From assembly GCA_045576375.1 (NCBI GenBank), contig JAZNGI010000025.1, positions 1-42,770 on the forward strand: a stretch of 42,770 nucleotides of DNA, given 5' to 3'. The notes below the pieces were generated by a model. That model did no database searches. It saw only the letters and a program-made list of their open reading frames with translations, and was not told the DNA's origin. The position numbers and the translations under genes are program-made. Every line of letters begins with the position of its first letter. The stretch's first letter is position 1. The DNA comes from Eubacteriales bacterium (lineage in GTDB: Bacteria; Bacillota; Clostridia; Oscillospirales; SIG627). Below, in pieces: positions 32,928 to 37,255 of this stretch.

Positions 32928-32956
32928 ATTATAGCACAATCCCCTCTCGGTGTCAA
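32928..32956 (-). promoter_or_regulatory. Consensus SigA promoter of asnA-glnN
   Basis: Minus strand reads TTGACA, 17 nt ending in TGC, then TATAAT. Confidence 0.75.
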
Positions 32957-33024: not shown

Positions 33025-33054
33025 TTGACAAAGGGCGGGAAGGTGTTGTATAAT
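33025..33054 (+). promoter_or_regulatory. SigA promoter of the coiled-coil protein/recG operon
   Basis: TTGACA, 18 nt, TATAAT. Confidence 0.65.
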
Positions 33055-33091
33055 AATGTATGATAAAATCCTCATTCAAGAAGAGGTTGTT

Positions 33092-35188
33092 ATGACAGAA
33101 ATTGCATTTTGCTTAGTAAAGCTCTATATAAAACAGTTCGCCTCCCTGAGCGACTTCACGCTGCAAGCCGAGCCCGATTTTTGCGAGATCCGCCTGAAGA
33201 GCGAGGAGAACGCAAGAGATCTTTGCGAATTCATTGCCCAATTCCTTTATTCCCCCTGCCCGCCCGACGGACAGATCGTGCTTTCCTCTCAAGGGGAAAC
33301 GTCCGTTTTGCATGTCACAGAGGGCCAAAGAAGCTACGAGGGAGAGGCGTTTTCCTTCGGGGAAGATCTTCCCGGCGTGGTTCTCACGGGGTTGGAGGAG
33401 CCGATCTTCCGTGAGCTTTTGATCAACGTGATCCACGAGGGAGTTCCCGCTCCCGTTTCCCCCGCCCTGCTGGATTTTTGCCTCCGCCCCTACGGTGCCC
33501 CCGGCAAGCTGATGAGCAACATCCGCAGTTTGGACGAAAAGAAGCGAAAATACACCACCCCCGAGGGCACGGGAAAGACCGATCTGGCTCTCAAGCGCCA
33601 CAAGGAGCTGACCGAGCAGATCGCCGTGGAAGAAGAACTGGAAGCGAAAAAAGCCCAGCTTCAGCGTGACTTGGAACTTTACCACAGCAAGCTGGACGAA
33701 AACGCCAACCGAAGCGTGATTCTCAAGGCAGATATGAAAAACTACGCCGACGACGTGAAGTTGGTGGAGAATCGGGAAAACGCCAGCTCTCTGAAAACCG
33801 AGATCCACGCCAAAGAGAAAAAACTGCGCATCCTGAAATACGAGGCTCAGCAGGAAGCGCCCATGCCTCAGCCCATGGAGCTTTACGACATTAAGCAGGC
33901 CTACGCCGAATTCAGCCGTGTGACCGCCCGCCTTTGCGACGCGCAAAACCGCTTGAATGCCGCCCAGGACAATTTGGATTTCCACGAAAAGGTGTTTGAA
34001 CACGCCGATTTTGACGCCAACGGCGTTCACAGAGAATATTCCAGGATCCACAGCTACCGCCGATGGAGACTCTCTTTTTTGGGGGCCAGCGCCTTCTTGT
34101 GCTTCACGGCGTTTCTGGTTTTCTTGCTCTACACCACCCTCACCGAAAGCTCCCTTTTGTTCTGCGGCTTTTTGGGCGCAAGCATTTTCCTTGGGGCGAT
34201 GATGTTCTTCGTGGCCTCCACCATGTTCTCCCACCAGACCCGCGTGATCCTGCAAAAGCTTCACATCAAAACAAAAAAGGAATTTGACGAGCTCTACCAA
34301 CGGCTGATCGCTCACCGAAAAACGGAGCGGGAGTGCAAGGAGCAGATCGAAAAATGCAAGAGACAATGCGAGCTTCTCACCCGTCTGAGCGAGGAGCAGA
34401 AAAATAAAATGAAGGAGCTTCTTTCCTACACGGGAAGACCCTTGAACACCACGGCGGAGATCACCCATCTGTGCGATCGGATCCTCTGCAACAGCGAGGC
34501 CATCAAGGAGTTGGAGGAGCAGTTGGAGGAGAGCAAGGAAGTCTACCAACGGATGCTCAGCGCCGACGTGACCAAGCCTACCCTCACCGTGAGCGATGAA
34601 TTCATTGCTCTGGAGCGGGAGCTGGACTTCATTCAGCGGCAGACCGCCGCCCTTCTCTCCAAAAAAACAAAAGCGGAAGAAGCCCTGAAAGCGCTGGAGG
34701 AAGAACAAAAGCGCGTGGAGGAGCTGAAAGCCGAGCTTCGTTTTACGGAGCAGGAGATCGAGCAATTATCGGGAGAATACAATTCCGTTTGCGCCTTGCA
34801 AAAGCCCCACTTGAAGGAAGCCGCCTCTCTGAAGGGAAAGCTGGAGGAGCTGTTCTGCGCCAACGCGGACAAGCTTCTCAGAAACATCCGAAAATCCGAG
34901 GAGCACTTTGCCCTTTCCGACCGCTTGCTGCCCATTATGGTGTGCCAGGGAGAGGTGACCGCCCAAGAGAATTCCGACAGCTACATTGCCCGGGCGGCAA
35001 TGCTGGTGTATAAGCTCTTGTTATCCATGGAATATCTCAAGCACCGCCCTATCTTCTTTTTCGACGGTTTCTCCTTTGCGGACCAGAAAACCGCGGGAGA
35101 GATCATCAAAAAGCTGGTGTCAAGCCGCGTGCAACTGATCTCCCTTTTGGGTCCCGATTCTCACTCTGTGAAGGACTATTACCAATGA
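33092..35188 (+). CDS. Membrane-anchored coiled-coil SMC/YhaN-like protein with degenerate ATPase motifs
   Basis: Start MTEIAF after a GAAGAGG SD (the track ATG 33056 lies at or before the predicted transcription start). The N-terminal head resembles the RecF/SbcC/YhaN head. Long coiled coils flank two adjacent TM helices (FLGASAFLCFTAFLVFLLY and LLFCGFLGASIFLGAMMFFVA). C-terminal PIFFFDGFSFAD is Walker B-like. Confidence 0.6.
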   Translation: MTEIAFCLVKLYIKQFASLSDFTLQAEPDFCEIRLKSEENARDLCEFIAQFLYSPCPPDGQIVLSSQGETSVLHVTEGQRSYEGEAFSFGEDLPGVVLTGLEEPIFRELLINVIHEGVPAPVSPALLDFCLRPYGAPGKLMSNIRSLDEKKRKYTTPEGTGKTDLALKRHKELTEQIAVEEELEAKKAQLQRDLELYHSKLDENANRSVILKADMKNYADDVKLVENRENASSLKTEIHAKEKKLRILKYEAQQEAPMPQPMELYDIKQAYAEFSRVTARLCDAQNRLNAAQDNLDFHEKVFEHADFDANGVHREYSRIHSYRRWRLSFLGASAFLCFTAFLVFLLYTTLTESSLLFCGFLGASIFLGAMMFFVASTMFSHQTRVILQKLHIKTKKEFDELYQRLIAHRKTERECKEQIEKCKRQCELLTRLSEEQKNKMKELLSYTGRPLNTTAEITHLCDRILCNSEAIKELEEQLEESKEVYQRMLSADVTKPTLTVSDEFIALERELDFIQRQTAALLSKKTKAEEALKALEEEQKRVEELKAELRFTEQEIEQLSGEYNSVCALQKPHLKEAASLKGKLEELFCANADKLLRNIRKSEEHFALSDRLLPIMVCQGEVTAQENSDSYIARAAMLVYKLLLSMEYLKHRPIFFFDGFSFADQKTAGEIIKKLVSSRVQLISLLGPDSHSVKDYYQ

Positions 35189-37226: not shown

Positions 37227-37255
37227 TTGAAAAAAAACGCCTTTTGGGGTAAAAT
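37227..37255 (+). promoter_or_regulatory. SigA promoter of DUF1015-valS
   Basis: TTGAAA, 17 nt, TAAAAT. Confidence 0.65.

Follow-up and report, generated by a model that had tools for sequence, protein, structure and literature searches.

An SbcE/YhaN-like protein with a predicted membrane hairpin and without ATPase motifs, encoded in overlap with recG in uncultured Oscillospirales

The window, by which we mean the whole 42,770-nucleotide stretch of DNA analyzed here (contig JAZNGI010000025.1 of assembly GCA_045576375.1), comes from a fragmented metagenome-assembled genome (MAG) of an Oscillospirales bacterium that comprises 220 contigs and is 94% complete. Immediately upstream of recG, it carries a gene on the plus strand for a 698-aa product (P0001, hereafter the window protein) that is very probably a member of the SbcE/YhaN family of Rad50-like coiled-coil proteins in which the motifs for ATP binding and hydrolysis have been lost. 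The positions of all features of the locus are collected in Table 1.

The reading frame is open from 33056 to 35188, and the coding sequence, beginning MTEIAF, runs through it without interruption. We place its start at the listed ATG because GAAGAGG precedes this codon, the -10 box of the promoter lies upstream of it, and all close homologues begin alike. A preliminary description of the sequence had proposed that the gene shares one TTGACA-18-TATAAT promoter with recG and that the two reading frames overlap, and both proposals held: the promoter is a perfect match, and at the ATGA junction (35185-35188) the TGA stop (35186-35188) overlaps the ATG of recG (35185-35187). When the interval between the gene and recG was scanned, no promoter comparable to TTGACA-18-TATAAT was found, and the next good one (10/12) precedes a DUF1015 gene at 37227. 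The downstream protein is RecG, with the Pfam domains RecG_wedge, DEAD, Helicase_C, and RecG_dom3_C all exceeding their cutoffs and the best NCBIfam RecG model reaching 700 bits, slightly below its cutoff of 718 bits. The recG gene is single in the genome; a second match to the model is partial (model positions 209-608) and falls in a 1197-aa frame that looks like mfd.

Relatives of the window protein are few. A word-indexed search of 5.8 billion proteins returned eight matches and a full HMMER scan of 1.84 billion cluster representatives returned fifteen, revealing a small family in uncultured Oscillospirales. A first group of homologues contains five proteins of exactly 698 aa each that are 46-79% identical to the window protein and share its odd motifs. 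A second group, 720-750 aa long and 23-30% identical over the full length, retains a conventional Walker A, a signature of the GGG type, and a Walker B of the form PMIFD[DE]; its proteins match Pfam AAA_23, SMC_N, and AAA_15, and the window protein aligns with them end to end. In most members of the family, all four motifs, the Q-loop included, are intact. We refer to the window protein and its seven close homologues as the dead clade, and to family members with intact ATP motifs as active. The eight dead sequences, which derive from independent assemblies and samples, are 698-699 aa long and 46-79% identical, have identical degenerate motifs, and include each of the three species that were sampled from the GTDB genus of the window.

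Alignment to the active relatives makes clear what has changed. None of the motifs expected of a Rad50/SbcC/SMC-like ATPase is left intact in the window protein. At the former Walker A, the P-loop lysine is replaced by alanine and the threonine by arginine, a site at which all 16 distinct aligned sequences outside the window's clade carry GxxxxGK[ST]. The YFxQ of the Q-loop aligns to INVI, with isoleucine in place of glutamine. The AGGG of the signature has become SDSY (aa 628-631), such that DSY (aa 629-631) stands where GGG is expected, and in Walker B the aspartate (Asp658) is retained while the catalytic acid is glycine. The preliminary description had recognized the loss of Walker A, signature, and Walker B, to which the Q-loop can now be added. 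It was right that the signature is gone but had looked for it one step too far along, since YIARAAMLVY is the helix that directly follows the signature. It had also reasoned that homologues with an intact P-loop would imply an artefact in this genome. Such homologues do exist, but at no more than 30% identity, and every homologue at 46-79% identity is dead, which argues for a derived loss rather than a sequencing artefact. As a separate observation, proteins of genus g4 (labels g2 to g6 denote genera of the window's GTDB family) have in a larger alignment the Walker A AANRAGKT, of the pattern AxxxxGKT, in which the first glycine is replaced by alanine (L032-L034, L038). This is probably a still-active variant, because its remaining motifs are intact.

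The relationship to Rad50 is not apparent from the window protein alone. Searched against Pfam, NCBIfam, and PADLOC, it yielded no head domain, just coiled-coil matches (Rad50, SMC, LmuB) and transmembrane noise, and therefore the kinship with Rad50 and YhaN, missed by direct domain searches, becomes visible only through motif-bearing relatives. A profile built from 31 family members matches Rad50 head structures of archaea and bacteria in the PDB over both lobes (E = 2.6e-17). Furthermore, an AlphaFold2 (AF2) model of the window protein (mean predicted local distance difference test score [pLDDT], 86.7) has a beta-rich N-terminal lobe, a small alpha/beta C-terminal lobe, and between them a near-continuous helix from aa 162 to 595, interrupted by a turn of four residues that links helix 309-350 to helix 355-389. 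A Foldseek comparison of this model with the PDB, a check that the preliminary description had suggested, placed Rad50 first (7zr1, Mre11-Rad50-Nbs1; E = 8e-14), followed by LmuB, JetC, MukB, and Smc5/6. Because the alignment behind this model held active members, the prediction was repeated from the eight dead sequences only; the topology was the same (pLDDT, 84.6), and Rad50 was again the top match (1.6e-13). When the dead-clade profile was searched against PDB sequences, Rad50 was not matched, and the best hits were designed transmembrane hairpins. An hhalign comparison of that profile with a YhaN-like protein from another GTDB family of the order (f8) recovered the N-terminal head with a probability of 85% (E = 5.8e-6). 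Profile, model, and structural search thus agree on a bipartite head with an antiparallel coiled coil, in keeping with the SMC/YhaN-like heads and some 450 residues of intervening heptad-rich sequence described at the outset.

At the center of the coiled coil are two hydrophobic helices, whose 19-residue Kyte-Doolittle means reach 2.2, separated by a TESS loop and flanked on both sides by segments rich in arginine and lysine. They had been noted before, at about residues 345-395, and actually lie slightly N-terminal of that interval. No CxxC hook motif was found in the center of the protein, and every family member examined has the central hydrophobic pair. The positive-inside rule would put both arms and the head in the cytoplasm and the hairpin in the membrane. 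Across the family, among active and dead members, no part is better conserved than two blocks within the arms. Each is separated from the hairpin by about 110-120 residues, one on either side, and abuts a predicted helix break. Given these similar distances and the breaks, the two blocks probably face each other in the antiparallel arm, forming a joint or docking site.

Table 1. Features of the recG operon in the window, with residue numbers of the window protein
Feature	Position	Strand	Remark
Sigma-70-type promoter, TTGACA-18-TATAAT	33025..33054	+	scores 12/12; serves the studied gene and recG
Ribosome-binding site, GAAGAGG	33078..33084	+	7 nt ahead of the ATG
Coding sequence, ATPase-dead SbcE/YhaN-like membrane-hairpin coiled-coil protein P0001, 698 aa	33092..35188	+	
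N-terminal half-head (aa 1-150)	33092..33541	+	predicted beta-sheet plus helix, like Rad50 lobe I
Former Walker A, LKSEENARD (aa 35-43)	33194..33220	+	aligned to G-x4-GKT[ST] of active relatives
N-terminal coiled-coil arm (aa 151-326)	33542..34069	+	
Best-conserved block of the family, in the N-arm (aa 204-247), N..R.VILKADM...DDVKL.EN.ENA..LK.EI..KEKKLRI	33701..33832	+	flanks helix break at aa 216-218
Hydrophobic helix 1 (aa 327-350)	34070..34141	+	RRWR before it
Hydrophobic helix 2 (aa 355-379)	34154..34228	+	R..KLHIKTKK after it
C-terminal coiled-coil arm (aa 380-600)	34229..34891	+	
Second conserved arm block (aa 493-525), V.K..L.VS.EF..LERELDF..RQ...L..KK	34568..34666	+	adjoins helix break at aa 490-501
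C-terminal half-head (aa 601-698)	34892..35185	+	
Former signature, ENSDSYIAR (aa 626-634)	34967..34993	+	aligned to xAAGGGxxSE of active relatives
Former Walker B, PIFFFDG (aa 653-659)	35048..35068	+	aligned to PMIFD[DE] of active relatives
recG, 671 aa	35185..37200	+	ATG overlaps upstream stop (ATGA)

Within the Rad50-like proteins, the evidence points to the SbcE/YhaN family. The next-nearest relatives in the profile search carry Pfam AAA_27, the YhaN domain, and one of them is named "YhaN" in its source. All AAA_27 relatives examined have the central hydrophobic pair, while in the remoter Rad50/SbcC-like matches a CxxC hook is present and hydrophobic segments are absent. The AAA_27 model (PF13514) is matched by 6 of 31 family members at E <= 0.01, and more distant relatives exceed its 22-bit cutoff; neither the window protein nor any other protein of the window genome matches it. 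When the whole family was compared with NCBIfam, no named family was reached at cutoff, the generic matches being RecF, Rad50, ASRP, arcadin-4, and TrlF. The SbcE (YhaN) protein of Bacillus subtilis is described as SMC-like and most similar to SbcC; its central domain is unique and, in the first half, hydrophobic and insoluble, and the protein acts together with the SbcF (YhaO) nuclease in competence and in the repair of double-strand breaks (PMC2811018). The window protein resembles it in having Rad50/SbcC-like half-heads, two long heptad arms, and a central hydrophobic domain in place of a zinc hook, and its relatives match AAA_27 and are encoded after an Mre11/SbcD-like phosphoesterase, in the way that yhaN is found with yhaO. 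It differs in being much shorter than B. subtilis YhaN, which has 963 aa, in having no nuclease partner in its genome (the neighbor upstream is a divergent asnA), in the loss of all ATPase motifs, and in falling below every AAA_27, AAA_23, and SMC_N threshold. Its overlap with recG is likewise an arrangement other than that in B. subtilis, where yhaN is reported to adjoin yhaO and yhaM and recG goes unmentioned (Krishnamurthy et al., Nucleic Acids Res 2010, PMC2811018). Since both the AAA_27 relatives and B. subtilis SbcE have a central hydrophobic domain, the predicted membrane hairpin belongs to the usual architecture of YhaN/SbcE proteins and is no novelty of the window gene. The preliminary description had recognized neither this nor the loss of the Mre11-like nuclease from the lineage.

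By structure and by profile, the two head lobes and the coiled coil that emerges from them are matched best by Rad50/SbcC, which also shares the ancestral pairing with an Mre11-fold nuclease; the window protein departs from it in having a membrane hairpin at the apex instead of a zinc hook, no nuclease, and no ATP site. There is also similarity at the level of fold, with weak PADLOC matches in head and coiled coil, to the defense systems Lamassu (LmuB-LmuA), Wadjet (JetC-JetD), and Gabija (GajA with the GajB helicase), in which a coiled-coil ABC ATPase is encoded beside a DNA-processing effector. The window protein, however, has no significant whole-length match to a defense model, its candidate partner is the sole, housekeeping recG, and the gene is single-copy and vertically inherited within a bacterial family. 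A reading as Lamassu, Wadjet, Gabija, or Septu was rejected on these grounds, the matches being weak and confined to the head.

The association with recG is conserved. Among the 24 distinct family sequences with enough flank, recG is immediately downstream in 22, mostly with a 4-nt or 1-nt overlap and never with a gap of more than 11 nt. A lack of conserved linkage, which the preliminary description had named as a refuting outcome, is therefore not what the family shows. This adjacency spans protein identities of about 23% to 79% and at least two GTDB families. No upstream partner was found to be conserved across genera, leaving recG as the sole conserved neighbor. Upstream are asnA/glnN in most of the window's clade, a polysaccharide deacetylase gene in g2, a DUF4358 gene in g6, and an AP_endonuc_2 gene in two lineages. 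In the window itself, the divergent asnA-glnN unit has its own perfect promoter (TTGACA-17-TATAAT with a TG extension, 32928-32956, minus strand) about 70 bp from that of the studied gene, and the two operons stand back to back. The AP_endonuc_2 gene, which encodes a xylose-isomerase-like TIM barrel, directly follows the active gene of the G046 type at one locus and directly precedes the most divergent gene of the dead clade at another (L001 3124-3900; L002 5051-5791). Because it is not conserved elsewhere, this link may be chance.

The distribution of the gene and of its relatives provides some insight into how the arrangement arose. Of the 51 species genomes in the GTDB family of the window, 35 carry a single copy, the window genome among them, and the 16 genomes of genus g3 carry none. 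Across the order, a YhaN-like relative is present in 130 of 301 sampled genomes. Three of these distant relatives have one in-frame stop each (G141:C4:6484-8676, TAA; G052:C24:5397-5912, TAG; G323:C57:27957-28463, TGA) and may be pseudogenes or assembly errors. Gene order was examined at twenty distant loci: at three of them, all in f8, a Metallophos (SbcD/Mre11-like) gene is followed by an AAA_27 ATPase gene and then by recG, and at a fourth, recG is one gene further on. Inside the window's family, a YhaO-like nuclease was found in only 3 of the 51 genomes, all of genus g5, and is there directly upstream of the ATPase gene. A search of the window genome for a YhaO-like nuclease found none. 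That genome (G000) also contains no SbcC-sized AAA_23 protein and no AAA_27 or YhaO/SbcD-like protein, its SMC-type heads being limited to SMC (a 1189-aa frame), RecF, and RecN; for this reason, it may be without any Mre11-Rad50-type end-processing nuclease.

In a maximum-likelihood tree, the dead clade is monophyletic (100/100) on a stem of 1.19 changes per column and is sister to the active genus g2 (96/96). It nests among active f1 members, while genus g5 falls beside the canonical AAA_27 outgroups, placing the descent of the window protein within the SbcE/YhaN family. On this tree, the loss of the ATP motifs in the window's genus is a single, derived event. The most economical history would begin with an operon of an Mre11/SbcD-like nuclease, the ATPase, and recG, an order that persists in another GTDB family and in one genus of the window's own. 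Most of the window's family would then have dropped the nuclease while retaining an ATPase gene that overlaps or abuts recG, after which Walker A, Q-loop, signature, and Walker B would have been lost in one event in the window's genus, with the gene remaining intact and fixed in length. Separately, the gene would have been lost cleanly from g3, in which the region 5' of recG contains no remnants of it. There, a gene encoding a DUF4358 lipoprotein (about 170 aa, lipobox LVSC) overlaps recG by 4 nt (L066 2753-3256; L067 2739-3272). In g6 (L001, L017, L028), a DUF4358 gene is found directly upstream of the SbcE-like gene, and the two placements together suggest an older order of DUF4358, SbcE-like gene, and recG. 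We regard the identity of the window protein as a derived, dead member of the SbcE/YhaN family, together with this evolutionary history, as highly probable.

Despite having lost its catalytic residues, the gene shows signs of constraint. For the single pair on which the estimate rests, the window gene and its 79%-identical homologue, the Nei-Gojobori ratio of nonsynonymous to synonymous substitution rates (dN/dS) is 0.13 overall, 0.12 in the N-terminal head, 0.16 in the C-terminal head, and 0.10-0.12 in the arms. Estimates against the 61-62% identical homologues were discarded, given that compensating indels misaligned the ungapped codons and dS was saturated. These figures indicate that the ATPase-dead gene is maintained by purifying selection. 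Constraint has moved from heads to arms: measured against the protein mean, the N-terminal head of the dead clade is conserved at 0.77 and its arms at 1.08-1.12, against 1.13-1.15 for the heads and 0.89-1.02 for the arms of the active sister clade. The arms and hairpin flanks are thus more conserved in the dead clade than in its active sister.

What might such a protein do? Our best explanation as a whole, which we favor with moderate confidence, is that of a dead SbcE/YhaN-derived protein that uses its membrane hairpin to serve with RecG as an ATP-independent scaffold. Its two half-heads would be joined by an antiparallel coiled-coil arm (about 175 + 215 residues) bearing the two-helix hairpin, and no zinc hook, at its tip. 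The hairpin is predicted to insert in the cytoplasmic membrane, leaving arms and head in the cytoplasm, and the protein is predicted to dimerize. Made stoichiometrically with RecG, it would tether or position the helicase on branched DNA near the membrane without a need for ATP. The preliminary description had likewise suggested a scaffold that could keep RecG, or intermediates of DNA repair and segregation, at the membrane. Considered on its own, the scaffold function with RecG is a tentative proposal, one we would sooner doubt than assume. A further version, which we think unlikely, is that an Oscillospirales lineage swapped the Mre11-like nuclease for RecG as partner and that the protein of the window's genus became an ATP-independent tether binding RecG directly, bringing fork reversal or branch migration to the membrane. 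Under that version, the candidate RecG-binding site would probably be the joint between the two conserved arm blocks.

Several observations weigh against a partnership with RecG. Genus g3 manages without the gene, and therefore the protein must be dispensable for RecG in some lineages. The DUF4358 lipoprotein gene overlaps recG just as tightly there, and because its product is extracytoplasmic and cannot contact RecG, overlap with recG alone is no proof of a complex. The G046-type lineage keeps an active gene away from recG, with the AP_endonuc_2 gene coming next instead. Furthermore, a comparison of RecG between lineages with and without the putative partner revealed no partner-specific domain or indel, just small indels. 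All of this, along with the silence on recG in the account of the B. subtilis yhaN-yhaO-yhaM genes (PMC2811018), would fit a membrane-anchored coiled-coil protein that has nothing to do with RecG, perhaps a scaffold of the envelope, of division, or for anchoring the nucleoid, whose place before recG is merely inherited operon order. Yet the adjacency has lasted across the whole range of identities and families noted above, usually with overlapping codons, no other neighbor has been conserved with it, and the ancestry of the family is in DNA-repair machinery; we consider an unrelated role rather unlikely, though it has to be taken seriously. The loss of function could also have gone further than we propose. 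The stepwise disappearance of nuclease and then ATPase motifs is documented, the whole gene has gone from g3, and the N-terminal head is the least conserved part of the dead clade, which could reflect partial decay, as would be expected of a functionless relic on its way to loss. A relic, however, would hardly have stayed intact at 698-699 aa, free of stops and frameshifts, in eight sequences down to 46% identity, or have kept a dN/dS as low as 0.12-0.16 even in the heads and arms and hairpin flanks better conserved than in the active sister clade. We find this explanation improbable.

The remaining alternatives concern the ATP site itself. Because the head fold is kept in the models and Asp658 persists in Walker B, the protein could conceivably still be a nucleotide-driven machine that uses a noncanonical site or borrows the active ATPase head of another protein; heterodimeric ABC proteins with one degenerate site exist. 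Against this stands the replacement of the P-loop lysine and threonine, the Q-loop glutamine, the signature GGG, and the catalytic acid, in a genome with one copy of the family and only SMC, RecF, and RecN to lend a head, and we judge it very improbable. Finally, a fragmented MAG is the kind of genome in which degenerate motifs might stem from errors of sequencing, assembly, or frame. Here, the frame is open throughout and identical motifs recur in seven other sequences from independent assemblies and samples; with eight independent sequences alike, an artefact is excluded.

The SbcE/YhaN family and its membrane hairpin are already known, though barely studied. A literature search found no link between YhaN and recG, no ATPase-dead SMC-like protein, and no SMC-like partner of RecG, nor did it find a description of the short, nuclease-less, recG-coupled subfamily or of its ATPase-dead offshoot. 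SbcE/YhaN proteins are widespread, and the experimental work that we found is limited to B. subtilis SbcE (PMC2811018), in which the membrane anchoring of a Rad50-like machine is left unexplained. The lineages compared here form a natural dissection series, with nuclease, ATPase, and RecG in some, ATPase and RecG in others, a dead ATPase and RecG in the window's genus, and RecG without such a gene upstream in still others. This series tells which parts are dispensable, and it singles out RecG as a candidate partner and the two arm blocks as a candidate interface. If the link is operonic only, the window protein would be a clean case of a pseudo-enzyme held by selection. If it is physical, branch migration or fork reversal would be tied to the membrane by a rare SMC-type protein that works without ATP. 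Should the direct tethering of RecG prove true, this would be the first Rad50-family protein with a helicase as its effector and the first natural "pseudo-SMC" scaffold.

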